From positions 1 through 50,100 of IMG/VR virus record IMGVR_UViG_3300030380_002955: DNA of 50,100 nt; one strand, given 5' to 3'. Under the pieces are notes generated by a model. That model was not told the DNA's origin. It saw only the letters and a list, made by a program, of their open reading frames with translations, and made no database searches. The DNA is from a virus (Duplodnaviria; Caudoviricetes). Made by a program: the position numbers and the translations under genes. The stretch's first letter is position 1; each line of letters opens with the position of its first letter. This document shows positions 15,398-49,893 of the stretch, in pieces.

Positions 15398-15399
15398 CT

Positions 15400-15732: not shown

Positions 15733-16166
15733 TGATAAGAAGAGCTAATGTTTTAGATACGTCAGCCTTAATCTTTATGTTAAATGAGATGCATAAAGAG
15801 ACAGAAGTTGAAGTTCCTAAGATAAATACTCATAAGTTAATAAATAAAATAAATGATTTATTGCATAGGGGTTTGGTTTTAGTGGCAGTAAAAGACAATA
15901 AAATAGTTGGATCAATAGCTGGAATGGAAGTTACTGACTGGTGGTCTGACGAAAAATATATTTCTGACACTTGGTTTTACGTCTTTCCAAACGAAAGAAA
16001 ATCAAATTTTGCAAAAAATTTATGTATTGACTTTATAAAAATAGCAAAAGAGGCTAAACTAAAAGTTAGATTAGGTCATATTTTTTCTGGTGATTTAGAA
16101 CGAAAAGATAATTTTTATTCTAAATTAGATCTAGTTAAGATAGGATCAACTTATATGGAGAAATAA
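15732..16166 (+). CDS. GNAT-family acetyltransferase
   Basis: MIRRA, IVG.I, FYV.P..RKS..A..L, FY.KL motifs. Confidence 0.8.
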   Translation: MIRRANVLDTSALIFMLNEMHKETEVEVPKINTHKLINKINDLLHRGLVLVAVKDNKIVGSIAGMEVTDWWSDEKYISDTWFYVFPNERKSNFAKNLCIDFIKIAKEAKLKVRLGHIFSGDLERKDNFYSKLDLVKIGSTYMEK

Positions 16167-16167
16167 T

Positions 16168-17391: not shown

Positions 17392-17401
17392 GAATAATTA
17401 G

Positions 17402-19027: not shown

Positions 19028-19036
19028 GGAGTAACT

Positions 19037-21436
19037 ATGGGAAAAAATAGACAAGTACCATCTTATATGACAGATGGGTCTAGTGCGAAAATAGATGAAA
19101 ACCAAGATAGTGGCGTTAGTTTAGCAGTTCCAACACCTGAAGAACTATCTATAGATAATTCTGTAGGAGAAAATATTGCAGTGGCTACAGATAAATCATC
19201 TGGTCTGATAGATAGTTTATATGATGCTTGGACAGGTGATAATGCTGATATTGAATTTCCAGATCTTCCAGAAACTACAGATTTAGAAGATTACTCATTT
19301 TGGGATGAGTTTACAAACCCAACTGCGGCTTTAAGTCTTATGTTTGCTAGAGATGATTGGTCAAAGGCAGAAATAATAAAAAATAATTTTGCAGACGATA
19401 ACAGATTTGGTGGTATTAAATACGACAAATTCAACAATCCTATGTTGGAGTGGAGTGATAAATTATATTATGTAAATAAGCCAGGTGCTAGTGAGCAAGA
19501 TATGGGTACAATTATGGGTGAGGTTGTCAAATATCTTCCTGCAAGTAAAGTTGTAAATGCATCAAGAAGTATAGCTGGTAGGATATTAAGTGGGTTAGGT
19601 TTATACACCTTAACTGAAGCTGGTGGAGAGGGTATAGAATCGCAATTAGCTCCAGAGGTTGCCAAAGGTAAAAAAAGAAGTGCAGAAGACGTTGCAGTAG
19701 ATTCAGCTAAAATGGGAGCAATATCAACTGGAATGGATTTAGTTGTACCACCAATACTTAGAGCACCAAAAGCAATTGCACAAGGTGTAACAAGAACTGG
19801 TGCACGATTACTAAAGAAAGATATTCCTAGTTGGGCAGAACCAGTCATAAAATCAAAGTCTAAATATGGACTTACACAAGGACAAGCACAAACAAAAACC
19901 CCTGGATTAGGAACAAAAGTACCAGCGTCTGAAAGAATTATGGAAGAAGATTTTATCAGAAATGCTCCTGGTGCAGAAAGTGCAGAAGCAAAAAAAATAT
20001 TAGATGACTTTGATGAAAATCAACTAAACGCTATAAGAAATGATGCACAAAAACTTCAATACGAAATGGGATCAAAAAAAATAATACCTGGTGAACAAGC
20101 AGATAATGTTCCAACTACATCTACACAAGATATAAAACAAATAGTCACTGATGAAGCTAAAAATCTAAAAAAACAATCAAAAGAAAGTTATGATTTTGTA
20201 GGAGGAGCATTAGATCAACCTCAAGTATCTGTAGAAGGTCTTACTACAATTTTAAACCAAATAAGAAATAACCCAGAATTTAAAGGTTTATTGCCAAGAC
20301 AATTAAAAAGAATGACCATACTTGCAGAAGAATTGTCAGCTTTAAGTGAACTTGAAAAAGCCATGTCAAGACCAGGATCTAACTACAAACAATCTATAGA
20401 TTTTAATGAAATAGTAAAACAACAAAAAGTTATTAACGAGGCATCTAGAACTGCAGAAAGAGGATCACCAGAAGCAAGATTGCTTGGTATGTTAAAAGGT
20501 GAATTTGATAAGTTTGTATTTGATGGAATTGATAGTGGATTTATTACTGGAAATAAAGTTGTAATTGATCAGCTAAAAAAAGCAACAGATTTATATAAAA
20601 AATATATAGGAATTAGTGGCAAGGGCACTGCAAAAGATAAAGCACAGAAAGCAGTCAATAATATTCTTGCTGATCTTACAAATCCAGCTTTTGAAGCAGA
20701 CAAAGTTGTAAATGTATTTTTTGGTCATTCAAAATTTAATCCAACACCAGTCATGGCTGAAGTATTAAGAAAAATGAAAGCCAATCTTCCAGAAGAAAAG
20801 GCTAAAGAAGTTATAGGTTTGGTCAAAGATGCAGTTTTACATAAAGCATTTTCTGGAAAAGGTAACGAAGTTACAAGAACTAATATAGTTCAAAACTACA
20901 ATGATATTTTTAATAAAAATAAAAATTTAATAAATATGTTATTTTCTAAAAAAGAAATAGAAAAAATAGCAGATTTTAGAAAGAATGTTGCACCTACATT
21001 ATGGGCAGATCCTGCATATGTAATGAATAAGTCAGGATCTGCATATGTATTTACCTCTGCAATGGCAAGAAATGGATTGTTAACTCAATTAGAAATACCA
21101 ATTGTGTCTCAAGTTTCAGGTGGATTAAATTCAATACGAAACACTAATATAGCATATGATGCTATAAAGAATTATGTAACAAGACAAAATCAGCCATTAT
21201 TTGATTTTCCGCTGCCTGGTGGTTATGGATCTGTATTAGAGAGAATGAATAGAATGTTTCAAGGTCAAGCATCTATAGTTCCTAAAGGCGTTGATTCAGA
21301 TAGACAAGCATTATTAGTAGGTGCAAAAGAAGATATAATTGGCACAGAAGAAGTTGATACGTCTGCACTTAAATCACTAGCTAGTAGTATAGATGCTGAA
21401 ACAAGAAAGAAAATTTTACAACAAGTAGGGCAATAA
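19037..21436 (+). CDS. Large ejection/internal virion protein (P22 gp16-like)
   Basis: 799 aa, helical; YVNKPG.S.QD and LTQGQ motifs; last gene of the ejection trio. Confidence 0.55.
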   Translation: MGKNRQVPSYMTDGSSAKIDENQDSGVSLAVPTPEELSIDNSVGENIAVATDKSSGLIDSLYDAWTGDNADIEFPDLPETTDLEDYSFWDEFTNPTAALSLMFARDDWSKAEIIKNNFADDNRFGGIKYDKFNNPMLEWSDKLYYVNKPGASEQDMGTIMGEVVKYLPASKVVNASRSIAGRILSGLGLYTLTEAGGEGIESQLAPEVAKGKKRSAEDVAVDSAKMGAISTGMDLVVPPILRAPKAIAQGVTRTGARLLKKDIPSWAEPVIKSKSKYGLTQGQAQTKTPGLGTKVPASERIMEEDFIRNAPGAESAEAKKILDDFDENQLNAIRNDAQKLQYEMGSKKIIPGEQADNVPTTSTQDIKQIVTDEAKNLKKQSKESYDFVGGALDQPQVSVEGLTTILNQIRNNPEFKGLLPRQLKRMTILAEELSALSELEKAMSRPGSNYKQSIDFNEIVKQQKVINEASRTAERGSPEARLLGMLKGEFDKFVFDGIDSGFITGNKVVIDQLKKATDLYKKYIGISGKGTAKDKAQKAVNNILADLTNPAFEADKVVNVFFGHSKFNPTPVMAEVLRKMKANLPEEKAKEVIGLVKDAVLHKAFSGKGNEVTRTNIVQNYNDIFNKNKNLINMLFSKKEIEKIADFRKNVAPTLWADPAYVMNKSGSAYVFTSAMARNGLLTQLEIPIVSQVSGGLNSIRNTNIAYDAIKNYVTRQNQPLFDFPLPGGYGSVLERMNRMFQGQASIVPKGVDSDRQALLVGAKEDIIGTEEVDTSALKSLASSIDAETRKKILQQVGQ

Positions 21437-36550: not shown

Positions 36551-37940
36551 ACCCGGCAGAGATTTTTATGACAATTGGCATATAGATGCAGTATCAGAAC
36601 ATCTACAAGCAGTCGTAGAAGGCGATATAAAAAGACTTATAATAAATATCCCACCAAGACATATGAAGTCTATAAGCGTAGCAGTAGCACTACCAGCTTG
36701 GACTTGGACAATACAACCATCTAAAAGATTTCTATTTGCAAGTTATGCAGGATCTTTATCAATTAGAGATAGCGTTAAGTGTAGAAGATTAATTGATAGT
36801 GCTTGGTACAGAAGATATTTTGGAGATACATTTTCATTAACGTCAGATCAAAACCAAAAGCAAAGATTTGAGAATGATAAGACTGGTCAAAGAATAGCAA
36901 CGTCAGTAGATGGAGCACTAACTGGAGAAGGTGGTGACATAATAGTTATTGATGATCCACATAACGTAAGAGAAGCAGAATCATCCACAGTTAGAGAAGG
37001 AGTTCTTGAATGGTGGGATCAAGCTATGCAGACAAGATTGAACGATCCTAAGACTGGTGCATTTATTATTATTATGCAAAGAGTACATGAGAACGATCTT
37101 ACTGGGCACATATTGGCAAACGAATATAATGACTGGGATCACTTATGCTTACCCGCAAGATATGAAATAGGTCATCCAACACCTACCAAAACATCATTAG
37201 GGTTTACAGATCCAAGAACAAAAGAAGGCGAACTGCTATGGGAAAAGAGAATAGATCATAGTACATTAGAGCAATTAGAGAAAAGTCTAGGGTCATATGC
37301 AAGTGCTGGACAACTACAACAAAGACCTATGCCAAAAGGTGGTGGGATATTAAAGGCTGAATGGTGGGTTCCCTGGGAAAAAGAAGATTTGCCAGAGATA
37401 GATTACTTAGTCCAAAGCTATGATACTGCCTTCAGTACAAAAGAAACAAGTAGTTACAGTGCAAGAACTACTTGGGGTATTTTTAAGATGAATGGACAAG
37501 TTAATGCTATAGTAGTAGAAATGTGGTATGATAGAGTAACGTATCCAGAATTAAGGAAACTTGCACAAGAAGCATATGATGACTGGCAGCCTGATACAGT
37601 TTTGATAGAGAAGAAGGCTAGTGGACAAAGTTTGCTACAAGATTTAAGAATGGGTGGGATACCAGTGTTGGCTTACTCACCAGACAGAGACAAGATTGCA
37701 AGAGCACATAGTAGTTCTGCATTGTTAGAAGATGGTAGAATATATTATCCACATGGGAAAAAATGGGCAAAAAATCTAATTGATATATGTTCAGCCTTTC
37801 CTGCGGGTGATAATGATGATATAGTTGACACTTGTACACAGGCTTGGTTAAGATTGAGAAAAGGTTGGTTTATCACTCATTCTACAGATTATGACGAAGA
37901 TGATAGTACAGAAGAGAGAAGGATGACAATATATGGCTAG
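36438..37940 (+). CDS. terL: Terminase large subunit
   Basis: INIPPRHMKS, TGEGGD....DDP, IMQR.H..D, QQ.P, SYDTA, IE.KASG, DD.VD...QA. Confidence 0.95.
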   Translation: MNLANLNQSLPQLLQKVEAEEMKRSLKEFTKNSWEAIEPGRDFYDNWHIDAVSEHLQAVVEGDIKRLIINIPPRHMKSISVAVALPAWTWTIQPSKRFLFASYAGSLSIRDSVKCRRLIDSAWYRRYFGDTFSLTSDQNQKQRFENDKTGQRIATSVDGALTGEGGDIIVIDDPHNVREAESSTVREGVLEWWDQAMQTRLNDPKTGAFIIIMQRVHENDLTGHILANEYNDWDHLCLPARYEIGHPTPTKTSLGFTDPRTKEGELLWEKRIDHSTLEQLEKSLGSYASAGQLQQRPMPKGGGILKAEWWVPWEKEDLPEIDYLVQSYDTAFSTKETSSYSARTTWGIFKMNGQVNAIVVEMWYDRVTYPELRKLAQEAYDDWQPDTVLIEKKASGQSLLQDLRMGGIPVLAYSPDRDKIARAHSSSALLEDGRIYYPHGKKWAKNLIDICSAFPAGDNDDIVDTCTQAWLRLRKGWFITHSTDYDEDDSTEERRMTIYG

Positions 37941-40365
37941 AGAACCTCAAGTAATTCCCTTTGCTGAAGCTATGCCTTCAGACAATTTTCAAGTTGAAGA
38001 AATTGGTAATGATGAAGTTCTAGTTGGTGATCCAAGTCTAGACATTGAAGAGAAGTCAGAAACTGGCTTTGATGAAAACTTAGCAGAACAAATTGATGCA
38101 AAAGAATTAAATGCAGTCGCTAGTGATTTAATTAGTTTTTATGAAACAGATAAGAACGCTAGATCAGAGTGGGAGTTTAGATATAAGCAAGGCTTAGAGA
38201 CATTAGATCCACAAGGTGGTCAAGAGGAAGAAGAAGATCAAAGAGCATCAAGAGGATTGAGTACTGTAGTTCATCCTATGATAGCAGAAGCCGCAACACA
38301 ATTTAATGCAAGAGCAATAGCAGAATTATATCCAAGTGGCGGGCCAGTCAAAACTGTAATAGTTGGCGATCCAAATGAGGAGATGGAAGAACAGGCAAAA
38401 AGAGTAAAAGATTATATGAATTATCAGATTACTCAAGAGATGCCAGAGTACTTTCCAGATTTAGATCAGATGTTATTTCAGCTACCATTAGTTGGTCATA
38501 CATTTAAAAAAATATGGTGGGATGCAAACTTAGAAAGACAGTGTTCTCAATTCGTGAAAGCAGAAGACTTTGTAGTATCGCCAGAGAGTAAAGATCTTTA
38601 TACGTCTATTAGATATACTCATGTAATTAGAATGCCAAGAAACGACTTTAACAAGTATGTGCAGTCTGGTTTATATCTACCAAGCAAATATACCTCAGAA
38701 GACATAGATCCAAGTGGAGATATTGGAAGTGAGATAGAAGGCGTAGATCCTTACAATAGTGAATCTAAAGATGAGGTAATGACATTGTTAGAGATGCATT
38801 GCTATCAAAGTTTTGATGGAATTGATGATGTAGATCAAGATGAAGATAATCAAGTTCACCTACCTTATGTAGTTACAATTGACTATGATTCAGAAAAGGT
38901 TGTTGCAGTAAGACGTAATTGGGAAGAAGAAGATAAGAAAAAGAAAAGAAGAGATTGGTTCGTAAGTTACAAGTTTTTACCAGGAACTGGGTTCTATGGT
39001 TTTGGTTTGTATCATATGATAGGTGGACTTGGTAGAGCGGCTACTGGGTCATTAAGAGCACTGTTAGATAGTGCGGCTTTTGCAAATATGCAAGGTGGGT
39101 TTAAATTAAAGGGTAGAGTTACTGGTGGAGAGATGCAGATTAATCCAGGTGAATTTGCTGACTTGGATGCTACTGTAGATGATGTGAACAAAGCGATAAT
39201 GCCACTGCCTTTTAAAGAACCATCTCAAACCTTGTTCAATCTAATGAATGCTATCACTGATATTGGTAGAAGATTTGCGAATACTGCAGACCTAAATGTT
39301 GGGGATGTTAATCCAAATGCTCCCGTTGGAAGTACTGTCGCACTGATTGAGCAAGGTAGTAAATCATTTAGTGCCATACACAAAAGATTACATTATGCAC
39401 AAGGGCAAGAGTTTAAACTTTTATCTAAATTAAATGCAGAGTATCTACCAGAACAATTTAAGTTTGCACAAAGTGGTGTAGATACAATTATATATGCTAA
39501 AGACTTTAACGATAGAATAGATATTATTCCAGTCAGTGATCCAAACATATTTAGTACTGCACAAAGAATAGCACAAGCTCAAGCAGTGTTACAGATGGCT
39601 AATTCAGCACCTCAACTACATGATCAGTATGAGGCGTACAAAAGAATGTATGAAGCGATTAGAATTAATAATATTGATGAAATACTTAAAGCACCAGAAG
39701 AAGCAGTTAGATTAGATCCAATAGATGAAAATATGTCTGTTATGTATGGTAAGCCTATAAGAGCATTCCCAGAGCAAGACCATGATAGTCACATTGCAGT
39801 ACATATGCAGTTTTTATCTGATCCTTCTCTAGCTGGAAATCCAGGGGCAAGAGCTATGCAACCAATATTAATTGCTCATATAGCTGAACATATAGCATTG
39901 TTGTACAGGCAGCGGATGCAAAGTGGTATTAATATGGAGATGCCTCCATTGCCAAATCTCAAAGATCCAAAGTTTAAATTTGAGGATATAGATCCAGCGA
40001 CAGATATGGTCATAAGTCAAAGGGCGGCTGAAGTAGTTAAACAAGCACCACAAATGCAGGCAATTGCACCGCTACTAGCAATGGCAAATCAGCAACAACA
40101 AGCTAGTAACCCATTACAATATGCACAAGAACTTGCTAAACTAGAGGCAGAGGCGTTGAAAGCTAGAACACAAGTGCAGATACAAGCTGATCAAGCTAAA
40201 GCACAACAGAAACTAGCAATCAATGAAGCAGAAGCTAAGCAAGATATGCAAATAGAGCAAGCTAAGTTACAACAAGAATTACAAGCAAAAGTAGCAAAGC
40301 TAGAATTAGAACTACAATTAGAACGAGAAAAAAACGCTATTAAACTACAAAAGGAGCTAAGATAA
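37933..40365 (+). CDS. Portal protein with long C-terminal coiled coil
   Basis: HP...EA..QF.A, M.EY, FLPG.GFYGFG, HKRLH, DIIPVSDPN; Q/A/E-rich barrel. Confidence 0.9.
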   Translation: MAREPQVIPFAEAMPSDNFQVEEIGNDEVLVGDPSLDIEEKSETGFDENLAEQIDAKELNAVASDLISFYETDKNARSEWEFRYKQGLETLDPQGGQEEEEDQRASRGLSTVVHPMIAEAATQFNARAIAELYPSGGPVKTVIVGDPNEEMEEQAKRVKDYMNYQITQEMPEYFPDLDQMLFQLPLVGHTFKKIWWDANLERQCSQFVKAEDFVVSPESKDLYTSIRYTHVIRMPRNDFNKYVQSGLYLPSKYTSEDIDPSGDIGSEIEGVDPYNSESKDEVMTLLEMHCYQSFDGIDDVDQDEDNQVHLPYVVTIDYDSEKVVAVRRNWEEEDKKKKRRDWFVSYKFLPGTGFYGFGLYHMIGGLGRAATGSLRALLDSAAFANMQGGFKLKGRVTGGEMQINPGEFADLDATVDDVNKAIMPLPFKEPSQTLFNLMNAITDIGRRFANTADLNVGDVNPNAPVGSTVALIEQGSKSFSAIHKRLHYAQGQEFKLLSKLNAEYLPEQFKFAQSGVDTIIYAKDFNDRIDIIPVSDPNIFSTAQRIAQAQAVLQMANSAPQLHDQYEAYKRMYEAIRINNIDEILKAPEEAVRLDPIDENMSVMYGKPIRAFPEQDHDSHIAVHMQFLSDPSLAGNPGARAMQPILIAHIAEHIALLYRQRMQSGINMEMPPLPNLKDPKFKFEDIDPATDMVISQRAAEVVKQAPQMQAIAPLLAMANQQQQASNPLQYAQELAKLEAEALKARTQVQIQADQAKAQQKLAINEAEAKQDMQIEQAKLQQELQAKVAKLELELQLEREKNAIKLQKELR

Positions 40366-40874
40366 TGCCAATAGTTATAACACCAACAGGGCAATTCATT
40401 GATTCTGTAACTGGAAACCCAGTAGACTTACCGCCACAAAGACCAGACTTGCCAATGCAAAAAATGGCTGGTGCAATGTCTGATAGAGATATGAGAACTA
40501 TAGAAGGTGCAAGGTCTAGAGAAAACATTCCAGCTAACATGGATATGGGTATGAATAGTGAAATGCCAGTGCCTATGACAGTCGTAGATCAAGTAAACGC
40601 TTTAATGGCAATGGGTTTAACAGAAGATCAAGCTCTTGAAGCAATTGCAATAGAAGAACGATCTGCAAGAGTTGACCCTCAGAACTTCTCTGGAGGAGCA
40701 AAATCTGATATGGGAATGGGTGCACTAAGTGGACTGCCTAGACAAAATGAAGCACCTATGGCAATGCCAACACCTAGACCAGAAGACTTAATGATGATGC
40801 AACAAATGCAAGGTAAAGATAGAACATTTAATCCTAGAGATCCAATTAACTCTTATAATGCTCCTAATACATAA
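40365..40874 (+). CDS. Met/Pro-rich protein carrying MGALSGL
   Basis: TAATG coupling to the portal; low complexity. Confidence 0.6.
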   Translation: MPIVITPTGQFIDSVTGNPVDLPPQRPDLPMQKMAGAMSDRDMRTIEGARSRENIPANMDMGMNSEMPVPMTVVDQVNALMAMGLTEDQALEAIAIEERSARVDPQNFSGGAKSDMGMGALSGLPRQNEAPMAMPTPRPEDLMMMQQMQGKDRTFNPRDPINSYNAPNT

Positions 40875-40883
40875 GAGGCAACT

Positions 40884-41921
40884 ATGGCTGAAAGACTTGG
40901 TGCATTAGGAAATCTAACTAGAGGCGAATTTGATAAATTGTCTTTAGGTGTACAAGGACAAAATGATGGTACAGATTTATTTGGTCTGTATAATTTTACT
41001 CCAACTACTGCCCTAACTAGTGGACTTGGCTTTGTTGGTGGAATGGGAACACCAATAGCAGTTGGGTCTTTGATAGGAAATTATCAAGCAGAAGAAGCCG
41101 CAAATAAATTATTAGGCAATCCAACAAACTTTATGAATAATGTAAAGCAACCATCAAACCCAAATTCTGCAGTGCAAACAGTAAGAGGAATGATTTCTGA
41201 CACTGATAAAGATGGTGTAATAAGTAATTATGAGATGAACCAATTTGGTCAAAGCATACCAGGATTAGACTTAGCTTCTATGTACACTGGTGGCAATCCA
41301 AATAAAATGGTAAAAGGTGCTGGAGGCAAAATGATGCCATCTGATGCAAAGGCAAACCCTTACAGTAGTCGTTCTTTTCAAAACCAAATGAATAGAGGTT
41401 TTTATTTTGATGACACAATTTCTCAAAACCAAATAGATGATAATATGAAGTCAACCAAAGACTACGCCGCTGATGCAATCAATCAAACTAACGTAACAAA
41501 CATGAAGGGATACGATCCTAATTTTGCCAAAGCAGTTACAAGAGAAAATCAAGAGGCATCTGGAAGTGGTGGTGATGGAACTTATATTTGTACTGCACTC
41601 TATGAAATGGGTGAAATGAAAAAATATATCTACAAATATGATCAAGTTTATGGCAAGAGAGTTGACCCTAATGTATATCGTGGATATTGTTTATGGGGTA
41701 AGTATGTAGCTACAAAACTAAGGTATAAAGGCTTTACATATAAAATAGTTAAACCTTTAGCACTAGCATGGGCAAAACAAATGGCTTTTGACTTATCCAA
41801 AGGTAGATATGGCAAGAACAATAAGGTTGTAAAGGTTATAAGTAAAATAGGCGAAGGTGTATGTTATGCACTTGGTCTTATTGTAAATATTAAACTTAAA
41901 AAAGGAGTAAAATATGGCTGA
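40884..41921 (+). CDS. Putative internal virion protein: N-terminal LGALGNL, EF-hand-like loop, C-terminal ICTAL...GY..W domain
   Basis: DTDKDGVISNYE; GSGGDG linker then YICTALYEMG...RGYCLWG. Confidence 0.6.
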   Translation: MAERLGALGNLTRGEFDKLSLGVQGQNDGTDLFGLYNFTPTTALTSGLGFVGGMGTPIAVGSLIGNYQAEEAANKLLGNPTNFMNNVKQPSNPNSAVQTVRGMISDTDKDGVISNYEMNQFGQSIPGLDLASMYTGGNPNKMVKGAGGKMMPSDAKANPYSSRSFQNQMNRGFYFDDTISQNQIDDNMKSTKDYAADAINQTNVTNMKGYDPNFAKAVTRENQEASGSGGDGTYICTALYEMGEMKKYIYKYDQVYGKRVDPNVYRGYCLWGKYVATKLRYKGFTYKIVKPLALAWAKQMAFDLSKGRYGKNNKVVKVISKIGEGVCYALGLIVNIKLKKGVKYG

Positions 41922-42204
41922 TATTAACGTAGAGAATATGGAAGAGAATGCTGAACTATTTATGGAAAAGATGGGGTTTTCTCACGATTCGCCAGGATTG
42001 GAGTTAACACCAGATCAGTTAGTTAACTTTCTATTGTTATGTTACCAAGGTATGGTTCTTCCAGACGAAGAAGAAGAAACAGAAATGGAAGAAGAGCACA
42101 TGGGTGATGGCATGAAAGTCAAAGTAATGAAAGTTGATAGTGGCGATATGAGAAGTGTCATGGATGAGATACTAGGACATTCATCACCAAAGATAGGAAT
42201 GTAG
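41914..42204 (+). CDS. Acidic hypothetical protein
   Basis: RBS AAGGAG. Confidence 0.6.
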   Translation: MADINVENMEENAELFMEKMGFSHDSPGLELTPDQLVNFLLLCYQGMVLPDEEEETEMEEEHMGDGMKVKVMKVDSGDMRSVMDEILGHSSPKIGM

Positions 42205-42206
42205 AT

Positions 42207-42488
42207 ATGCAAAATATACCAAATGATATTGGTGCTTTAGCAAATTTACAAAAGGCTATCCCATTAAGTGATATGCCAGAAGGTAGGGTTGAGCAAGTGG
42301 GCGAGGATTATGGAGTAATAGCTCAATTCATCGGTCCAAATTTAGAAGATGCTATTAGTGTTTTCAAAGAGGGTAATGGATATTATGCAAGTGGACATAA
42401 CTTTGATTTTTTTGCCAGCGATATTCCTGATCTTATGAAAAAACTTAAAGTATATGGTGCAACTGAACTTTATTATGGGAGATTATAA
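42207..42488 (+). CDS. Hypothetical protein with N-terminal IGALANL
   Basis: ORF track; operon packing. Confidence 0.55.
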   Translation: MQNIPNDIGALANLQKAIPLSDMPEGRVEQVGEDYGVIAQFIGPNLEDAISVFKEGNGYYASGHNFDFFASDIPDLMKKLKVYGATELYYGRL

Positions 42489-42490
42489 TC

Positions 42491-42634
42491 ATGCCAGGAA
42501 AAGTATACTCAAAAAAACAACAGAAGATAGCCAACGTAGCAAAGCCAAGAAACAAGTTGACTGGTGCTGATTTTAAAAAATTAGCCATGCTTAAAAAGAA
42601 AAAGAAAAAAAAGACTAAAACAAAGATGGCATAA
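42491..42634 (+). CDS. 47-aa Lys-rich protein (not in ORF track)
   Basis: MPGKVYSKKQQKIANVAKPRNKLTGADFKKLAMLKKKKKKKTKTKMA; RBS GGGAG. Confidence 0.65.
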   Translation: MPGKVYSKKQQKIANVAKPRNKLTGADFKKLAMLKKKKKKKTKTKMA

Positions 42635-43900
42635 ATGGCTGATCCCATTGTACGAAATCTAGTAAAGCAATTCTTAACTAAGAACTTTAAACCATTATTT
42701 AGCAGTAATGAGCTTGGAGCATTAGGTAATATTAGCAATACAAGCGAAGATTTAATTAAAAAGTTTGGTGCTTTGCCTAAATTTGAGATTACTGGCGAAG
42801 ATTTGAGAAGCGTTGGTGCTGAAAAATTTAGAATGAAAGACTTTCTTTATGAAAACCCATTACCTTTTCAAATGGATTTTACAGAATTAAAAGGAGCACA
42901 AAGAGATCCACTTAAAGACTTTTCCATGAGAGCACAAGTGGGTGCAATACAGAAAGATCCTACACTTGCTTCAGATGCATCTTTGCTAAAAGGTAAAACG
43001 ATTGTTCCATTAGTTGGAGATAGGTCAAGTAGAGACGTTATTATAACTGGAATAGGTGATATAGATTTTGAAAACCCAGTCAGAACAAGTGGTGGTATTC
43101 AATTCATGGATGACAAAGATCAAAGCTGGGCTTCAATGATGTCAGTTATGAAGGATATCAATAAGACTGTAGAGACAGTAGAACAGATGGGTGGTAAGCC
43201 AGTTGGCATGACAACTGCTATGGGTGCATCTGGTGGTGATTTTTCATTAGATACTGCAAACTTAATAATTGAATCATTAAAAGCAAAAAAATTATCAAGA
43301 AAACAACTTGATGATATTACTGATGCAATTCGTAATAAAGTAAAAGATGGTAAAACTCCTTTTGCAAATATGCCAAATTTAAACAATATGAATGAGTTTG
43401 AAAGTTATTTTAAAGGATTAGTAGGATCACCTAGAAGTGAATTGGTGAAAGCATTTGATAAGGCAAAAGTACAAGATGCTGGCGGCCCGAACATAGGTCA
43501 GTTGAGATTTGCAGTTACAAACCCAGGATTAATAGCAGAGGATTTTCTAGGCATGGGTGGCAGATTTTCAGACATTAAGTCAGGCATGACACCTAGCACA
43601 CACCCATCATACGACACAAAGATATCTAAAGCACCAGGAGCAGAAGTATTTACTTTTGGAACTGGAATACCAAGAACTATCATGCTTAGAGAGCCTATGA
43701 AGAATGTTAGAGCAGAAGGCAAAGGTTTTGGTACGTTAAAGGCAATGCCCGCAGATCAAAGAAAACTGCAAATGGACTTGCCTGTTCAGCCAGTTGACCA
43801 ACAATTAATAGATGAAGCATCTAAATTCTTAGAAATAAAAAGAAATCTAGGCGATAAAGAAGCCTATGAGTATGCACAAAGATTAATACCAGCTACATAG
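42635..43900 (+). CDS. 421-aa hypothetical protein with LGALGNI and FGALPK motifs
   Basis: ORF track; GDRS, GG..FM, HPSY.T motifs of unknown function. Confidence 0.6.
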   Translation: MADPIVRNLVKQFLTKNFKPLFSSNELGALGNISNTSEDLIKKFGALPKFEITGEDLRSVGAEKFRMKDFLYENPLPFQMDFTELKGAQRDPLKDFSMRAQVGAIQKDPTLASDASLLKGKTIVPLVGDRSSRDVIITGIGDIDFENPVRTSGGIQFMDDKDQSWASMMSVMKDINKTVETVEQMGGKPVGMTTAMGASGGDFSLDTANLIIESLKAKKLSRKQLDDITDAIRNKVKDGKTPFANMPNLNNMNEFESYFKGLVGSPRSELVKAFDKAKVQDAGGPNIGQLRFAVTNPGLIAEDFLGMGGRFSDIKSGMTPSTHPSYDTKISKAPGAEVFTFGTGIPRTIMLREPMKNVRAEGKGFGTLKAMPADQRKLQMDLPVQPVDQQLIDEASKFLEIKRNLGDKEAYEYAQRLIPAT

Positions 43901-43908
43901 GAGTTGAT

Positions 43909-44088
43909 ATGGCAGTTAAGAAAAAGAAAAGCACAAAAAAGAAAGGTTCTATACCTACAAATAAAGCGTTATATGCTAGAGTAAAAGCAGAAGCAAAACG
44001 TAAATTTGATGTTTATCCCTCCGCATATGCAAATGCCTGGCTTGTTCGGACATACAAAAAACGAGGTGGAGGCTATAGGTCAGCATAA
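43909..44088 (+). CDS. 59-aa basic protein (not in ORF track)
   Basis: RBS AGGAG; KF.VYPSAYAN.WLV..YK..GG.Y; TAATG coupling. Confidence 0.7.
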   Translation: MAVKKKKSTKKKGSIPTNKALYARVKAEAKRKFDVYPSAYANAWLVRTYKKRGGGYRSA

Positions 44089-44381
44089 TGGCAAAGACTA
44101 GTGGTGGACTTACAAAGTGGTTTAAACAAGATTGGGTAGATATTGGCTCTAAGAAGAAAGGTGGTGGCTTTGCCAAGTGTGGTAGGACAAAACAAAAGAA
44201 AGATGCCAAGAGAAAATATCCTAAGTGTGTGCCTAGAGCAAAAGCAAACGCTATGTCTAAATCACAGATTAAGTCTGCAGTAACAAGAAAGAGATCAAAA
44301 GCTCAAGGAGTTGGTGGTAAACCTACAAACGTAAAAACAATAGTGAAAAGGAAGAAAAAAAATGGCAAAAAAAGCAGTTGA
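44088..44381 (+). CDS. Small basic conserved phage protein
   Basis: GGLTKWFKQDWVD, CGR, YPKCVP motifs. Confidence 0.7.
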   Translation: MAKTSGGLTKWFKQDWVDIGSKKKGGGFAKCGRTKQKKDAKRKYPKCVPRAKANAMSKSQIKSAVTRKRSKAQGVGGKPTNVKTIVKRKKKNGKKSS

Positions 44382-44523
44382 AGCACCTAAAGGTTTTCAT
44401 TGGATGAAGTCTGGCAGCGGATTCAAGTTAATGAAAGGCGAGTATAAGCCACATAAAGGTGCAGTTAAAAAGGCTTCATTTGATATACAAACAGTACATA
44501 CGTCAGCACAAAAGAAGAAGTAA
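44362..44523 (+). CDS. 53-aa basic protein (not in ORF track)
   Basis: APKGFHWMK...LMKG.YKPH; TAATG coupling. Confidence 0.65.
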   Translation: MAKKAVEAPKGFHWMKSGSGFKLMKGEYKPHKGAVKKASFDIQTVHTSAQKKK

Positions 44524-44780
44524 TGGCTACCTATAAGGGCAAAAAGGTTACACTAAACAAACCTAGACGTATTGCTAAAGGTGAAACATCCTATGGCAAA
44601 AAGAAGTCTGTGGTTTATGTTACTGATGGAGATAGAATAAAGCGTGTAACTTTTGGTGATCCTAATATGAAGATCAAGAAAAACCAAAAAGGTAATAGAA
44701 AGAGTTTCAGAGCTAGACATAACTGTGACACACCTGGACCGAAAACAAAGGCTAGGTATTGGTCATGTAAGGCTTGGTAG
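44523..44780 (+). CDS. Small basic conserved phage protein
   Basis: V.FGDPNM, RKSFRARHNC, ARYWSCKAW. Confidence 0.7.
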   Translation: MATYKGKKVTLNKPRRIAKGETSYGKKKSVVYVTDGDRIKRVTFGDPNMKIKKNQKGNRKSFRARHNCDTPGPKTKARYWSCKAW

Positions 44781-44781
44781 C

Positions 44782-45627
44782 ATGAATATAGGTGCTTTAA
44801 GACAACTTGTGAAACAAGGTGCGAAACAAAACAAGATTGTTGGTAATCCATTTAGTAGTAAGGATGATATTGAAAATTATTTCAGAAGTGAAATAAGGCG
44901 TGGAGCTTTACCTAAGAAAAACCAAAAATACTTTGATACCTTTGATCCTAACATTTACTATCATTCCACCATAGAGGACATAGATAAATTTGATCCTCAA
45001 ATGTCAATAGAAAAAGGTGCTTATGGTCAAGACAGTATATTTGATCCTCTAGACACAAGAGGTGCAACTTATTTTACAAGTGACAAAGAACTAGCTAATC
45101 AAGTCTTGCAAGATAAAAGAATAATGACACAAGCAGAATATAACAGACAAAAAAGAAATATGGGTAGTGGTCAATATCCAGACTTTGATGTTGATACTGT
45201 GTATAATCCAAAAACAGATGAAGAATTTTTATCTGCATCACGAATATATCCAGTTAAAATTAAAACAGATAAATTATTTGATTTTGAAGACGATGTTGAT
45301 TTTGACAAGTTAGAAGAAAAAATATTAGCAAAGTTCTCTGACGAAAGTGATGAATATAAACTTCTAAATAGAGTTCAATCTGGAGAATGGTCTATCCTTG
45401 AAAGACCACAAATACAAAAAGAACTAAAAGAGCTAGGATTTACAGGATATAGAACAAGCGAAGCTGGGACAGTAGGTTTGTTTAATCCAGATAAAGGCGA
45501 TGTAAGAAGCCTATACGCTAAGTTTGATCCTAAAGAGGCTAAGAGTGGCGAGATACTAGCAACTATTGTTCCATATGCCTCTGTGGGCACTATAGGAGCA
45601 CTAGCAGGCTTGGATGAGGGCACATAA
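44782..45627 (+). CDS. ADP-ribosyltransferase-like protein (polyvalent-protein ART type)
   Basis: YYHST...FD, GATYFTSD..LA, IYPV.I, GFTG...E, FNP..VRS...FDP; likely start ATG 44782; IGAL at both termini. Confidence 0.6.
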   Translation: MNIGALRQLVKQGAKQNKIVGNPFSSKDDIENYFRSEIRRGALPKKNQKYFDTFDPNIYYHSTIEDIDKFDPQMSIEKGAYGQDSIFDPLDTRGATYFTSDKELANQVLQDKRIMTQAEYNRQKRNMGSGQYPDFDVDTVYNPKTDEEFLSASRIYPVKIKTDKLFDFEDDVDFDKLEEKILAKFSDESDEYKLLNRVQSGEWSILERPQIQKELKELGFTGYRTSEAGTVGLFNPDKGDVRSLYAKFDPKEAKSGEILATIVPYASVGTIGALAGLDEGT

Positions 45628-46211
45628 TGGTAAAGCCTATAGTAAAAAAAGGTATTGAAGAACTATTTGGTGCATTACCCAAGTCTTTAAATGATCTAAG
45701 AAAGGGTGCAACTATTAGAATAGATAATCCACAATTTTTAGATGTGTTGACTGGCGAAACATACGTTGAAAAAAAAATTAGAGAAAATAACGAATACATA
45801 GAAGATCTAGTAAAAAATTATGGTAAACCAAGAGAGGATATAACTATAGGCAATGTAAGTGGAGTGACTGGCTTTGCTGATAATATTAAATTAAGTCCAA
45901 AAGAAATATTCAACATAAAAGGTCATGCTGGAGAAGAAAAATATAGAATGTCTAGTCCACAATTAGAAAGATTAAAAGAAAGCATAGCTAAAGAAGGTTA
46001 TCGTAAGGCTGATGAAGGTGGCGAAAGAATACTAATTCATGTAAGAGAAGATGGAGTTCCTTTTATTACAGAAGGTAATCATAGAATGGTAGAAGCGTAT
46101 CAATCCAATAGACCTTTTATCTCTGCTGATATAAGATACCTAAGAGGATCAGAGAACGTAGACGGGCCGCTAAATCCTAAGAGAATAGGAATAGACTTTG
46201 GTGAGGAGTAA
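45627..46211 (+). CDS. ParB/Srx-like N-terminal-domain protein
   Basis: LKESIAKEGY...ILI.V.......EGNHR..A motif; FGALPK near the N-terminus. Confidence 0.6.
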   Translation: MVKPIVKKGIEELFGALPKSLNDLRKGATIRIDNPQFLDVLTGETYVEKKIRENNEYIEDLVKNYGKPREDITIGNVSGVTGFADNIKLSPKEIFNIKGHAGEEKYRMSSPQLERLKESIAKEGYRKADEGGERILIHVREDGVPFITEGNHRMVEAYQSNRPFISADIRYLRGSENVDGPLNPKRIGIDFGEE

Positions 46212-46213
46212 TT

Positions 46214-46405
46214 ATGGCTAGAAGTAAAGTTAAAAAAGTTGCAAACGCTGAGATCAGAGCGGCAAAAACATTTCTAAATAAAAAAGGATTATCTACAGAA
46301 GAGGTAAGTCCAAAGAAGTTTGCACAAGCCGCAAAGAAACTTGACAAGAGTTTTAAAGAAACTTTACAGATATTAGCTAGAGAATTAAGTGGTGGACAAG
46401 TTTAA
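46214..46405 (+). CDS. 63-aa basic protein
   Basis: RBS GAGGAG; Lys/Ala-rich. Confidence 0.6.
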   Translation: MARSKVKKVANAEIRAAKTFLNKKGLSTEEVSPKKFAQAAKKLDKSFKETLQILARELSGGQV

Positions 46406-49077
46406 TGGCTGAGAATGCATTCACGCCATATGGAACTACAGACGCTAGTATTCGTAGAGAAACAGAACGCTTATCTGATCAAAAGTATATGGATATGCAA
46501 AAGCAGAGAGAAGATCTGTATGGACTGCCTTTAAAATCACTTGAGCCATCACAAAGAGATAAAGACACAAAAAAAACACAAGAGATGTTATCTTATCTAG
46601 GACTAAAGCCAGAAACATCAACAAGATTTGCTAGAGATTTAATAGGTAGGGATAGATATGATCCCGCTGCCAGTGCAGGAGTTTTAGATTTTACACCTTA
46701 TGCACCTTTAGTTTACGATTTACCTCAAGACATAGATGAGTTTAAAAGAGCAAGAGAAGCTGGAAGTTTAAGTGGTCAATTGTACAGTGGTGCAATGATA
46801 GGTTTAGATGTGCTTAGTCCATTGCCTTTTGGATTGTTGGCTAACAGAGTATTTGGTAATCCATTAAAAAAGTTTGCAAAGTCAGTTGGTGATAAAGTAA
46901 AAGGCGATACTACACCAAAGATAGGTGCATTTTCATCAATATTAGAGCAACCTACAGTACAACCTAAGATGATTGCTAATACTAAACTACAAGCACCAAG
47001 TATGGCTATGGTAAACCCTAGAAAGGTAGATGACTTAGGATTTTATTATAAGTCAGAAGAGGTTGCTAATACTATGCAACAAAAGAAAGGATCAGGGGAA
47101 CAATTCTTGGCTTTCTTTAAGAATAAAGGCGTAAAAGATAGTGAGTTATATGATACTGGCTTAGAGGAGTTATTTAAAAGAGATAAAGTCACCAAAAAAG
47201 ATATATTAGATAATATTGATTTAAATAGATTGCAGTTACAAGAAAGGACTTATGTTGGTAGCGATGTAAGCAGTAACTTAATATTTGAAGATATAACAAA
47301 AAAACTAGAATACAAAACACCAGAGTTTAACAAATATAGTCAAAACGAATTAGATAGTATGGATGGTGTGGATTTAAATGATATACCTGATGGAACAGTT
47401 TCAACAAGAGTGTTGGAAGACACAAAAACTGGATATAAGATTGTATATGATGAAAATGGAGAAAATTTTCTAACATACAGACCAAATACAGATATATTTG
47501 ATATTGAGCAATCAGAACAAGCTAGAGCACTTATAGATGAGCATGAGACGTTAGAAGGTTTTAGATTTGATGAAATAGCTCAAAAGGGAAATATAAACGA
47601 AGCTACAGTAGCTACTGAAGGTATTGCTATAAACAATGGCGATTATATAAGTACAGATGCTAGATTTGCAGATAACACACAAAAAGGTGGCACTAATTAT
47701 AAAGAATATGTATTGAGAAGGCAGTCATTTAATCCAACTATGGCTATGAGAAATGAATATGTGAAGCCAGATGATTTTCAAAATCAGATACATTATGAAG
47801 ATTTTAATCCTATATTTCATGTAAGAACAAAAGATAGAACTACTACAGATGGTGGTAAAACTCTTTACACAGAGGAGTTGCAGTCAGATAGAGGTCAACA
47901 AGGTAGAAAATATGGATTTAGTTCTGGTAAAAACTTTGATGAAACAGTAGCAAAATACAAAGAATTAAATGATAAAGTCATTGATGTATTTACAGATTTA
48001 CCTGTCAAACTAAAAAGTATGGAACAAGAATATCTTTATCAGTTAAAAAATCCAGGGAAACCACCAATAAGAATACCATTAAGAAGTGACTTAAATCAGG
48101 ATCAAATAAACTATTTTTCTAGACAGTCATCGTCAGGCAGGGCAAGACTTGATAATGATGACTTTTTAGACTTTGAAGCAAGTAGAATGCCAGATGAATA
48201 TAAAACTATGAAGTTATCAGACTATATAGAGTTTTTAAGTGACCCAAATAATCCAATAAGAAATGATATAGAAACATTAAATCTTATGAGAAATATAGGT
48301 GGCGTAAGTCAATTATATCAGATAGGAAAAGTACCTAATAGGATTGATTTTAATAGCTTAGATAAAGAAAAACAGTTAAATCTTTTACGTTCAGCTTTGC
48401 AAGATATACAATACTCAAGATATGATTTGAGTAAAAGTAGGCATAACAATGCATTCCCAGATTTAGATACCTTTGCTGGATTCGCTGATGATTTAAGAAA
48501 TGATTTAACACAAACATATAATAAATTACAAGGTAACGTACCTGGTGGAGATTTAGTTGATAATACTGAGGACTGGACAAGATTAGGCATAAAAAGACTA
48601 TTACAGAAAGCAGTTGAAGGTAATTATGATTCTGTTACATTCTCGCCTGGTCAAATACAAGTTGATAGATGGGGAAACCCAAAGCTCAAAGATTTTTACG
48701 ATAATATAATACCAAAGATGGCAAAAGAAGTCGCTGGAAAGAAGAATGTAGGTATAAAAGAAGTTGAGATAGCACCAAATGATTTTCATACAATATTTAT
48801 GAGAGGAAGTAGTGCTATGGATAGACGATATTTTGTATCAAGAGTTGGAACAGATAGACCTATAGCTGGGTTTGATACATTAGAAGATGCACAAAGATAT
48901 GTTAAAAACCTAGATAGTATAGAAAATCAAAAGTCTATAGCCATTACAATCACACCAGAACTGAAAGAAAAAGTATTAAAAGGATTATCTTTATTTACTA
49001 TGGGTGGTGCAGTTCTAGGACTAGAAGAGCAGATAGGAGCACTAGGCAGTATGCCTAGCACTCAAAATTTAACTTAG
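46405..49077 (+). CDS. Large polyvalent-protein-like virion protein
   Basis: GVK..EL..TGL, GG.NY.E..L, H.R..DR, EELQSD..Q.G, KRLL..A....YD, FYD..IP; ends EQIGALGSM. Confidence 0.6.
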   Translation: MAENAFTPYGTTDASIRRETERLSDQKYMDMQKQREDLYGLPLKSLEPSQRDKDTKKTQEMLSYLGLKPETSTRFARDLIGRDRYDPAASAGVLDFTPYAPLVYDLPQDIDEFKRAREAGSLSGQLYSGAMIGLDVLSPLPFGLLANRVFGNPLKKFAKSVGDKVKGDTTPKIGAFSSILEQPTVQPKMIANTKLQAPSMAMVNPRKVDDLGFYYKSEEVANTMQQKKGSGEQFLAFFKNKGVKDSELYDTGLEELFKRDKVTKKDILDNIDLNRLQLQERTYVGSDVSSNLIFEDITKKLEYKTPEFNKYSQNELDSMDGVDLNDIPDGTVSTRVLEDTKTGYKIVYDENGENFLTYRPNTDIFDIEQSEQARALIDEHETLEGFRFDEIAQKGNINEATVATEGIAINNGDYISTDARFADNTQKGGTNYKEYVLRRQSFNPTMAMRNEYVKPDDFQNQIHYEDFNPIFHVRTKDRTTTDGGKTLYTEELQSDRGQQGRKYGFSSGKNFDETVAKYKELNDKVIDVFTDLPVKLKSMEQEYLYQLKNPGKPPIRIPLRSDLNQDQINYFSRQSSSGRARLDNDDFLDFEASRMPDEYKTMKLSDYIEFLSDPNNPIRNDIETLNLMRNIGGVSQLYQIGKVPNRIDFNSLDKEKQLNLLRSALQDIQYSRYDLSKSRHNNAFPDLDTFAGFADDLRNDLTQTYNKLQGNVPGGDLVDNTEDWTRLGIKRLLQKAVEGNYDSVTFSPGQIQVDRWGNPKLKDFYDNIIPKMAKEVAGKKNVGIKEVEIAPNDFHTIFMRGSSAMDRRYFVSRVGTDRPIAGFDTLEDAQRYVKNLDSIENQKSIAITITPELKEKVLKGLSLFTMGGAVLGLEEQIGALGSMPSTQNLT

Positions 49078-49825: not shown

Positions 49826-49893
49826 TCTCCAAATTTTGTTATTCGTTAATGTCTTAAAATTAATATAATCTTTGTAGATACATAAGTCAACCC
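49826..49893 (-). promoter_or_regulatory. Early sigma70 promoter and conserved leader
   Basis: GGG-TTGACT-17nt-TATATT; TAACGAATAACAAAATTTGGAG. Confidence 0.8.

Follow-up and report, generated by a model that had tools for sequence, protein, structure and literature searches.

Unrelated late proteins in the phage genome analysed here carry a common short peptide with the core G-A-L, which raises the question whether this peptide is an address that brings such proteins into the phage head. The window, i.e. the whole stretch of 50,100 nucleotides of the IMG/VR record IMGVR_UViG_3300030380_002955, contains an almost complete phage genome. The phage is marine and short-tailed, and belongs to the CRP-901-like clade, a sister group to the HTVC023P-type pelagiphages. 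More than 598 relatives of this phage were found in IMG/VR by means of the portal protein. The 5′ end of the record is missing, by about 1.4 kb or more, and in relatives this region contains only the scaffold gene and a GroES-like gene. The window encodes the major capsid protein at 1100..2002 (plus strand, as all features below; Phage_capsid_4, E 3e-13) and the portal protein at 37933..40365 (phrog_1216 portal, E 9.6e-32), both untagged. The portal gene is the upstream border of a cargo module of 14 ORFs at 40365..49077, the gene content of which differs among relatives. The cargo proteins are encoded as separate ORFs of 93-890 aa. Seven of the module ORFs are tagged (40365, 40884, 42207, 42635, 44782, 45627, and 46405); the other seven are all small, six of them basic and one acidic, so the tag is not necessary for every product of the module. 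A scan for promoters and terminators between 36000 and 50100 gave hits at chance level only.

The Met/Pro-rich 40365 protein possesses MGALSGL at residue 118 of 169 (40716..40736), and GAL is kept in 27 of the 29 unique members of its family despite diverging flanks. N-terminal copies are present in the 40884 protein (LGALGNL, residue 5, 40896..40916), in whose family 21 of 27 unique members possess GAL among their first 45 residues, and in the 42207 protein (IGALANL, residue 8 of 93, 42228..42248), whose tag is kept in all four unique homologues. The 42635 protein carries two copies, LGALGNI at residue 27 (42713..42733) and FGALPKF, of the GALP kind, at residue 44 (42764..42784), and LGAL was found in 16 out of 16 close homologues. 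The AF2 model of this protein has a mean pLDDT of 84, with values below 50 for residues 14-34, and the tagged N-terminal arm is thus predicted to be disordered. An ADP-ribosyltransferase (ART)-PolyVal-like protein, with ATG 44782 as the likely start, possesses three copies, namely IGALRQL at the N-terminus (44788..44808), the internal GALP-type RGALPKK at residue 40 (44899..44919; kept in the close homologues P0218 and P0219), and IGALAGL at the C-terminus (45592..45612), with seven residues after GAL. The 45627 protein has FGALPKS at residue 14, near the N-terminus (45666..45686), and its homologues in L056 and L074 carry N-terminal GAL tags of other sequence. Finally, IGALGSM occupies residues 877-883 of the 890 residues of the 46405 protein (49033..49053), and a homologue in L020 possesses LGALSNM at the matching place.

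A second site of tagged genes is located at 14006..21436, and comprises ORFs 14006, 15400, a GNAT gene at 15732, 16168, 17402, and 19037. We refer to it as the putative ejection block, a label suggested by gene position and by one weak match, that of the 16168 protein to the DNA ejection protein family phrog_4287 (E 7.3e-7). The 14006, 15400, 17402, and 19037 proteins gave no match to known ejection proteins or to other families. The 15400 protein ends with MGALGSM as its final seven residues (15709..15729), and 113 of the 120 cluster representatives of its family terminate likewise in GAL followed by 2-5 residues. The 16168 protein contains a conserved internal LGALQGV (17245..17265) and a degenerate C-terminal copy, IGGLGSL (17341..17361), to which orthologues align IGALGTA and VGALGSL. 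Only degenerate versions are present in the window's 14006 and 17402 proteins. FNALGSF of the 17402 protein (17711..17731) is aligned with GAL in four of five orthologues. FGVFNNIL lies near the N-terminus of the 14006 protein (14024..14047), and orthologues show IGALTGL, LGALTNI, and IGALSKI near the matching place, where the alignment is gappy. The 19037 protein of the window lacks a terminal tag; its single GAL is located in mid-protein, at residue 390 of 799. GAL is absent from the GNAT protein.

The sequence-only reading from which this work started had described a tag [ILMF]-G-A-L-x-x-[LMI] on unrelated late proteins of the region 40365-49077, and every copy that it listed is present in the translations. 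Two of its weaker variants, IGGLGSL and FNALGSF, turned out to align with true G-A-L of orthologues, as given above. The proposed location was right for seven of the eight pattern matches, which fall inside 40365-49077 (11 ORFs and 2,753 aa in this count); the eighth belongs to the 15400 ORF, and the region is only part of a system that includes the ejection block. The early and replication proteins of the window are free of the full pattern, as had been claimed, and the codons of the copies differ at wobble positions, in agreement with conservation at the protein level; explanations of the motif at the DNA level were rejected because of this codon variation. The statement that the carriers are otherwise unrelated held for 12 tagged and neighbouring proteins compared by BLAST (E<0.01), except for a C-terminal domain common to the 14006 and 40884 proteins. 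Side by side with these copies, RGALPKK is the third GALPK of the window, and was not in the earlier list.

Whether the motif exceeds what composition predicts was checked with within-protein shuffles of 71 window ORFs (15,864 aa). The pattern [ILMF]GAL..[LMI] was observed 8 times, against a mean of 0.221 expected, and none of 1000 shuffles reached 8; GALPK was observed 3 times, against 0.015 expected in the same shuffles. The pattern had been defined on the same window data used for this test. In an unbiased tripeptide scan of the window, bare GAL (16 observed, 6.4 expected) was not among the top outliers, and an unbiased tetrapeptide scan did not single it out either. Because the pattern is post hoc and bare GAL is no top outlier, the decisive support is the independent replication in relatives.

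With a pattern slightly wider than the original one ([ILMFVY]GAL..[LIMVF] or [ILMFVY]GALP), six whole genomes of the clade contained 33 matches in the 17,268 aa of the cargo genes and 15 in the 12,031 aa of the ejection block, compared with 2 in the 67,810 aa of all other genes. Bare GAL occurred in these genomes at 3.13, 2.58, and 0.41 per 1000 aa, respectively. A second comparison was made at the level of protein families, from which the window and CRP-901 had been excluded. GAL was found in 27 of 51 post-portal families and in 4 of 102 control families. It lay in the first 35 residues in 14 of the 51 and in 1 of the 102, and in the last 16 residues in 10 of the 51 and in none of the 102. 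When the post-portal families were sorted by tag position, the tag was N-terminal in 14, C-terminal in 11, and at both ends in 4 of the 51. Module representatives contained 36 GAL, where 5.8 were expected, and controls 2, where 4.6 were expected. The 24 post-portal families without GAL have a median length of 104 aa, and those with GAL of 247 aa.

The surroundings of the core are also constrained. In 125 dereplicated instances, chosen on GAL only, a hydrophobic residue occupies position -1 in 72% and position +5 in 73%, where the background is 28%, and 62% have G, S or P at position +3. The consensus in the clade is hydrophobic-G-A-L-[G/S/P]-x-hydrophobic-[P/G], within flanks rich in Gly, Ser, and Asn. 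Thirty-one of the 125 instances fall in the first 25 residues (14.2 expected) and 22 in the last 15 (9.1 expected); the remaining 72 lie between, many of them in the low-complexity 40365 family. C-terminal tags have 4-15 residues after GAL and N-terminal tags as few as three before it, the ORFs of relatives having been called by a simple longest-ORF rule, so that N-terminal distances may be wrong and C-terminal distances are unaffected. Tandem GALGAL is present among the tags of relatives, and an 803-aa ORF of L056 possesses four internal copies.

The check proposed by the sequence-only reading, whether relatives tag non-orthologous cargo with the same motif, gave a positive answer. Non-homologous cargo proteins of relatives are tagged near the N- or the C-terminus. 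In the loci L104, L107, and L112, each genome possesses a row of four to five adjacent genes that begin with a near-identical 17-residue leader that includes RGALE, followed by bodies that are unrelated at E 1e-3, except for two short matches in L107. The codons of these leaders differ at synonymous sites. The motif could nonetheless be a non-functional by-product of composition, of low complexity, of common ancestry of the termini, or of DNA homology used in gene shuffling. Such an origin would fit a pattern drawn up post hoc around a tripeptide that is unremarkable in the unbiased scan and lies in Gly/Ser/Asn-rich flanks, and the leader DNA of neighbouring genes in the three arrays is similar enough for recombination. 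However, it does not account for the excess in the module representatives and in the window (8 matches where 0.22 were expected), for the hydrophobic residues at -1 and +5, or for a motif that outlasts change of flanks and codons, is nearly confined to two gene blocks, and is missing in out-group phages. We regard this explanation as close to refuted.

The out-group consists of five phages with 38-43% portal identity, in whose 57,124 aa no motif match was found; these stretches also contain no homologue of any tagged protein by tblastn at E<=1e-3. A terminal tag is present in all 16 ART-like homologues encoded in clade loci, each of them with a C-terminal GAL, and in none of five encoded in other loci. 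Among cluster representatives, 34 of 47 close and 5 of 103 remote ones are tagged, and terminal GAL occurs in 2 of 50 ART-like homologues longer than 450 aa. The tag thus tracks the phage clade and not the protein family. A modular terminal tag on unrelated late proteins, as originally proposed, is linked to one clade and to two gene blocks, whose products are, judging by position and weak homology, internal or ejected virion proteins.

We consider it somewhat probable that the motif is a portable docking tag which, at either terminus, brings the ejection proteins, together with cargo that can be exchanged, into the procapsid. The internal virion proteins would be the ejection proteins of 14006-21436 and the variable post-portal cargo of 40365-49077, with one short linear motif in common. 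Flexible tails at the N- or the C-terminus bear it, in some proteins at both ends and in some as a tandem. During procapsid assembly the tag would dock on a conserved assembly component, and any bearer of the tag would be enclosed in the head and then reach the cell along with the DNA. Such a short tag, functional at a free end, would let cargo genes be recruited or swapped with no change of the capsid. Tagged proteins would accordingly be expected in the virion, and the tag would bind a partner during assembly. P22 and T4 suggest, by analogy, that this partner is most likely part of the scaffold or core; the tag may be removed later.

The closest known system is the capsid-targeting sequence (CTS) of T4, the sole common peptide of diverse and rapidly changing head-internal proteins (IPI-III and Alt), among them an ADP-ribosyltransferase, which encloses them in the prohead (PMC3012670). 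Similar to the CTS, the GAL tag is a short peptide on otherwise unrelated, here presumably head-internal, proteins that include one resembling an ADP-ribosyltransferase, and the arrays of L104, L107, and L112, with one N-terminal leader on unrelated bodies, have the same layout. The CTS is N-terminal only and is taken off by the prohead protease. The GAL tag, in contrast, is N-terminal, C-terminal or both, is also found on ejection proteins, and belongs to a podovirus clade; no protease gene was found in the Pfam scans of the window. In phage P1, a reporter is directed to the capsid by the first 30 residues of DarB, fewer than 30 terminal residues suffice for a protein to enter, and the Dar proteins have no consensus in common (PMC9024508). 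DarB resembles the present case in using a terminal peptide as capsid signal; the GAL consensus, in contrast, is common to dozens of families.

To our knowledge, P22 is a podovirus that lacks a prohead protease. Similar to the phage studied here, it is a podovirus, and its ejection proteins gp7, gp16, and gp20 are loaded into procapsids. Their entry requires the scaffold and not the portal, and uses N-terminal parts (PMC8402733). P22 differs in having three ejection proteins and no variable cargo module, and in the available text of the same source no common peptide motif is described for gp7, gp16, and gp20 (PMC8402733).

The motif could instead be a processing site only, at which a phage or host protease would cut the internal proteins, within G-A-L or beside it, while the head matures; the common motif would then mirror common cleavage and not targeting. 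Its length of about 7-8 residues, small central residues, and hydrophobic residue two places before Ala are similar to the P3/P1 logic of assemblin-type proteases (L/I-x-E in T4, S/A/G-x-E in phiKZ, V/L-x-A|S in herpesviruses), terminal copies all retain at least three residues per side, and the several internal copies in large proteins of relatives, such as the 803-aa ORF of L056, are possible domain junctions. The motifs of the T4 gp21, phiKZ, and SPN3US proteases are likewise short, degenerate, and recurrent in many head proteins. In those systems the motif is also found in scaffold and capsid proteins, the ones that known prohead proteases mainly cut, and the protease gene is present. Here, on the other hand, GAL was found in none of five scaffolds and none of six capsid proteins of clade genomes, and Pfam scans of 74 window ORFs detected no peptidase family and no MuF domain. 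For the 42635 protein, which is the largest of the conserved unknowns, the AF2 model had no match among PDB folds, of proteases or of any other kind, at E<=0.001. The missing 5′ end is an unlikely place for a protease, as relatives have the scaffold and GroES-like genes there. Moreover, a cut would often take off just 3-8 residues, and tandem and double-ended tags suit avidity better. We therefore hold a role in processing alone to be improbable. Cleavage and targeting are compatible, because the T4 targeting peptide is also cut off.

Other searches were equally negative. A PDB sequence search (E<0.06) returned nothing for the 42635 family, the head-gene families 28-516 and 532-1086, the portal, the ART-like family, or the 45627 and 19037 proteins. 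NCBIfam gave nothing useful for 10 proteins, and neither did Pfam and PHROGs for 20 cargo or scaffold-position proteins of relatives.

As for the partner on which the docking tag would act, the motif is absent from the two conserved capsid-adjacent families 28-516 and 532-1086, and hydrophobic-GAL was found in none of six clade portals. The major capsid protein qualifies as a candidate receptor by elimination only. Two cargo-module families were considered as receptors and rejected: the 44523 family has 73-88% identity, yet is found in unrelated marine viruses, and the 41914 family is clade-specific among isolates, yet went undetected in several tagged loci. Complex prediction of residues 1-40 of the 40884 protein with the scaffold of relatives, the capsid protein, and the acidic 41914 protein returned a score of 0.02 (mark 0.32), which gives no answer either way.

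That neither of these families is a conspicuous untagged, clade-specific receptor would fit a motif that acts as a sticker by mutual association, bundling ejection proteins and cargo into one internal body or chain with no separate receptor, and perhaps helping to form a conduit across the envelope after ejection. Multivalency points in the same direction (the 44782 protein carries three copies and the 42635 protein two, four of the 51 families are double-ended, and tandem GALGAL occurs), as do the several low-complexity Met/Pro/Gln/Gly-rich carriers of the 40365 and 15400 families, which have a sticker-and-spacer layout, and the fact that structural ejection proteins and enzymes bear the same tag. 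Nevertheless, seven residues with a G-A core are a weak unit of self-association, and a bundle would still require an anchor in the procapsid. Self-association in place of docking is unlikely in our view.

A further possibility is an exit signal, which would engage the portal or tail channel, or a conduit of ejection proteins, and order or permit translocation of proteins into the cell. A tag at a free end is well placed for threading, cargo and the proteins presumed to form the conduit have it in common, and the cargo module follows immediately 3′ of the portal gene. However, with signals at N- as well as at C-termini, threading would have to be possible in both directions, and the data do not separate exit from entry. 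We are aware of no earlier example of such a sequence-specific signal for ejection in tailed phages, and consider this role very unlikely.

Proteins that enter the cell with phage DNA are difficult to infer from sequence. In the literature searched, no common sequence label for such cargo was found beyond the T4 internal proteins, no virion proteomics on the CRP-901-like group was found, and, within the incomplete coverage of that search, no description of the GAL motif was found. If the docking reading is true, the tag marks the injected set of a very abundant group of marine phages, including an ADP-ribosyltransferase-like enzyme and dozens of orphan families, which are probably counter-defence or takeover factors. 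A podovirus would then keep a fast-changing cargo module with neither a protease nor fusion proteins, and the tag would offer a simple handle for testing loading and for putting foreign proteins into capsids. A bolder version, which we find doubtful, is that the tag is a universal, direction-independent label, so that seven residues at a free end suffice for entry into the head with no protease or covalent fusion, and several tags strung on spacers of low complexity gather the ejection proteins and the enzymes into a single internal body. Injected proteins could in that case be read from sequence, foreign proteins could be loaded by means of the tag, and one abundant lineage of ocean podophages would possess an exchangeable effector-delivery system.

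The ART-like protein connects the module with polyvalent and MuF effectors, whose ART-PolyVal-type domains are encoded beside packaging genes and presumed to be enclosed in the virion and injected (PMC5512222). The likeness to the polyvalent proteins of Iyer et al. (2017) lies in the ART-PolyVal assignment, which holds at the family level, and in the position of the genes beside the portal and terminase genes. Those effectors are giant chains or fusions to MuF or portal proteins, whereas the cargo proteins of the window are small and separate, each with its own tag. The 44782 protein alone matches ART-PolyVal at E 0.0063, below the Pfam cut-off, and 12 of 36 members of its family match it, with a best E of 1.3e-16. 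Its remote homologues include proteins of 1,200-3,800 aa. An Atlas lead also points to ART-PolyVal for the 44782 protein.

All instances of the hydrophobic-G-A-L-x-x-hydrophobic tag listed in the sequence-only reading are present in the window translations. The pattern [ILMF]GAL..[LMI], which was defined from the very data counted here, is more frequent than composition predicts, with eight matches in 71 ORFs (15,864 aa) versus 0.221 in within-protein shuffles, and none of 1000 shuffles reached eight. GALPK was found three times versus 0.015 expected. Seven out of the eight matches lie within 11 ORFs of the post-portal cargo module (40365-49077), and the eighth corresponds to the last seven residues of the ORF starting at 15400. 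The seven tagged proteins of the module are all of at least 93 aa; the seven untagged ones have at most 97 aa, and six of them have a pI of at least 10.3. As claimed, the motif codons vary between copies, at wobble positions. The carriers were also said to share no other homology, which holds for most of them. The exception is the pair encoded at 14006-15397 and 40884-41921, with a common Cys/aromatic-rich C-terminal domain of ~100 aa (27% identity over 104 aa, E 2e-6), the sole similarity detected by BLAST among 12 tagged or neighbouring proteins at E<0.01. This paralogy links the ejection block (14006-21436) to the cargo module. Since the pattern comes from the sequence it was tested on, and the bare tripeptide GAL (16 observed, 6.4 expected) was no outlier in an unbiased tripeptide scan of the window, replication was sought in sequences that the earlier reading had not seen.

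The record is a single contig of 50,100 bases, truncated and not circularly complete, because its start falls inside the scaffold gene, and the scaffold and GroES-like genes are missing. Positions 1-27 (frame 2) hold the last seven codons of a scaffolding-protein gene, encoding a C-terminal heptapeptide identical to that in the related contig G002; the scaffold of relatives is a 310-aa charged coiled-coil protein. Genes for the scaffold (~310 aa) and the GroES-like protein (~135 aa) lie upstream of the 28-516 homologue in CRP-901 and in four contigs of relatives; they are missing from the window, as noted at its termini (1-27 and 49833-50100), and fall off its 5′ end. Genes identified in the window include an HK97-type capsid protein of 300 aa (1100-2002), primase/helicase (34112), large terminase (36438-37940) and portal (37933-40365). 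The window also encodes a holin, a lysozyme, a tail fibre bearing an endosialidase-chaperone domain and, in the tail region, two paralogous SU10-type adaptor proteins (2993-3691 and 4876-5502). Two adjacent 2OG-Fe(II) oxygenase genes (8672-9415 and 9419-10027) are located between the tail-fibre and lysis genes. The nearest isolates are the Roseobacter phages CRP-901 and CRP-902, which grow on Roseobacter sp. FZCC0083. Their portal protein is 73% identical to that of the window, and the DNA of terminase and portal is 67% identical; both phages are placed beside the HTVC023P-type pelagiphages in PMC10149686.

Six genomes were counted, namely the window, 50 kb of CRP-901 and four IMG/VR contigs of 49-54 kb, with the slightly wider pattern [ILMFVY]GAL..[LIMVF] or [ILMFVY]GALP. 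We found 33 matches in 17,268 aa of post-portal cargo genes, 15 in 12,031 aa of the block homologous to 14006-19037, and 2 in 67,810 aa of the remaining genes; the six genomes, like many of the loci below, are related, so that these counts are not independent events, and the family-level counts and the out-group contrast are fairer measures. The range 40365-49077 proposed for the tag thus included a tagged module, but was too narrow, since the ejection-protein block also carries matches. In this block, one protein (16168) matches the PHROG annotated as 'DNA ejection protein' (E 7.3e-7), and orthologues of the 16168 and 17402 proteins show true G-A-L aligned with the weaker variants noticed there. 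The 15400 family has the C-terminus M-G-A-L-G-x-M/V/I in all six genomes, and among 120 cluster representatives 113 terminate 2-5 residues after GAL. The block also includes an untagged GNAT acetyltransferase gene (15732-16166), at the same place in CRP-901 and the four related contigs.

Within the clade, the tag was never found in scaffold, capsid or portal proteins, in the two conserved head proteins beside the capsid gene, or in three small conserved module proteins. Its absence from scaffold and capsid weakens the reading of the motif as a pure cleavage site, as do the tags located only 3-8 residues from the end, which are often seen, and the Pfam scans of 74 window ORFs, where no peptidase family was detected; it remains a less likely alternative, and cutting after targeting would fit the T4 model.

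More than 598 portal relatives are present in IMG/VR, from which 80 loci were retained, with ORFs called by a simple rule. Gene content after the portal differs from phage to phage among the 18 loci with at least 5 kb in this region. Related phages do tag non-orthologous cargo, as ORFs without a BLAST match to the window bear x-G-A-L-x-x near an end. The family-level comparison, which left out the window and CRP-901, covered 51 post-portal BLAST families and 102 control families from the same loci. GAL was present in 27 of the 51 (last 16 residues in 10, first 35 in 14) versus 4 of the 102 (0 and 1, respectively). Family representatives contained 36 GAL versus 5.8 predicted by composition after the portal, and 2 versus 4.6 in the controls. 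Conditioned on G-A-L alone, 125 dereplicated instances recovered the proposed flanks: 72% have a hydrophobic residue directly before G, and 73% have one three places after L (background 28%). The position right after L holds G, S or P in 62%, and P or G is frequent at the fourth. The first 25 residues hold 31 of the 125 instances (14.2 expected) and the last 15 hold 22 (9.1 expected), while 72 belong to neither. It is highly unlikely that chance, composition or recombination junctions gave rise to the motif.

In a deeper branch (loci L104, L107 and L112, portal 61-63% identical), four to five consecutive genes per genome open with a near-identical 17-residue leader containing R-G-A-L-E, whose codons vary at synonymous sites. 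Many of these proteins also end in G-A-L-x-N-L-V-E/D, and the bodies behind the leaders are unrelated within each genome (E 1e-3), except for two short matches in L107. In the family of the ART-like protein (ATG at 44782), 12 of 36 members match Pfam ART-PolyVal. A terminal GAL is present in 34 of 47 cluster representatives at E<=1e-10, in 5 of 103 at weaker E, and in 2 of 50 homologues above 450 aa in length, a set that includes many giant multi-domain proteins. The homologue is terminally tagged in 16 of 16 ORFs from IMG/VR loci with window-type head genes, and in none of five from other loci (three of the five being the same protein). No motif match was found in five out-group phages (HTVC023P, HTVC027P, 023Pt_psg01, DSL-LC04 and Caulobacter phage RW; 57,124 aa, portals 38-43% identical), with 22 GAL versus ~29 expected. 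Judged from these comparisons, the tag is portable and is a trait of the phage lineage.

The deeper-branch loci L104, L107, L112, L113-L115, L119 and L126 contain arrays in which four to seven small cargo genes stand in tandem. Most of the array genes begin with a common ~17-residue leader, several also have a common C-terminal G-A-L tail, and some deeper-branch proteins bear tandem GALGAL or GAL-x2-GAL tags. The out-group loci L131-L133 (DSL-LC04, 023Pt_psg01 and HTVC027P) possess one to two very large ORFs (480-890 aa) between terminase and portal, unlike the window clade, which has none there; their post-portal module is short and the tag is absent.

A motif this short, located on the flexible ends of numerous unrelated proteins and persisting while its surroundings drift, has the hallmark of a peptide that docks to a shared partner. 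The tag on a flexible end would dock to this partner during head assembly, and its carriers are those presumed to lie within the head. A scaffold or core component is the favoured candidate receptor by analogy with the podovirus P22, since its ejection proteins are described as entering procapsids via the scaffold, with no need of the portal (PMC8402733). In other systems, such effector domains are joined in polyvalent proteins or attached to MuF or portal domains, according to PMC5512222. That joining is covalent, whereas the window phage has separate proteins, each with its own tag, which would represent a non-covalent substitute for effector fusion. A model in which the tags are stickers that associate mutually also fits, and suits tag multivalency and the low-complexity carriers. 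The motif could also be an exit signal, which these data do not separate from an entry signal. The proposed modular address tag for loading interchangeable cargo into the head is unproven; backed by the enrichment, the restriction to two blocks and the clade linkage, it is the best-supported reading for these presumed head-internal proteins, and we give it slightly better than even confidence. The initial observation is confirmed and extended.

The conserved 421-aa protein encoded at 42635-43900, the sole protein folded, gave a confident AF2 model (mean pLDDT 84, pTM 0.83) in which the tagged arm is disordered. Foldseek found no match to this model in PDB at E<=0.001, and the protein may represent a new fold. 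The 96-aa, very acidic protein at 41914-42204 (pI 4.1) combines an N-terminal domain that is conserved with an acidic linker that varies and gains a Cys/His-rich insert in some relatives; it is never tagged and is present in most, not all, tagged loci. Six small very basic ORFs (42491-42634, 43909-44088, 44088-44381, 44362-44523, 44523-44780 and 46214-46405; 47-97 aa, pI 10.3-11.2) are scattered among the tagged genes. These are never tagged, one corresponds to DUF5872, and they may enter the head through DNA binding. Of the module proteins, only that of 44088 has out-group homologues. The basic 85-aa protein at 44523-44780 is 73-88% identical across the clade, exceeding the conservation of the portal, and has relatives in unrelated marine viruses, namely pelagimyophage HTVC008M, T7-like pelagiphages, Nitrosopumilaceae spindle-shaped viruses and phages of Methylophilales and Flavobacterium.
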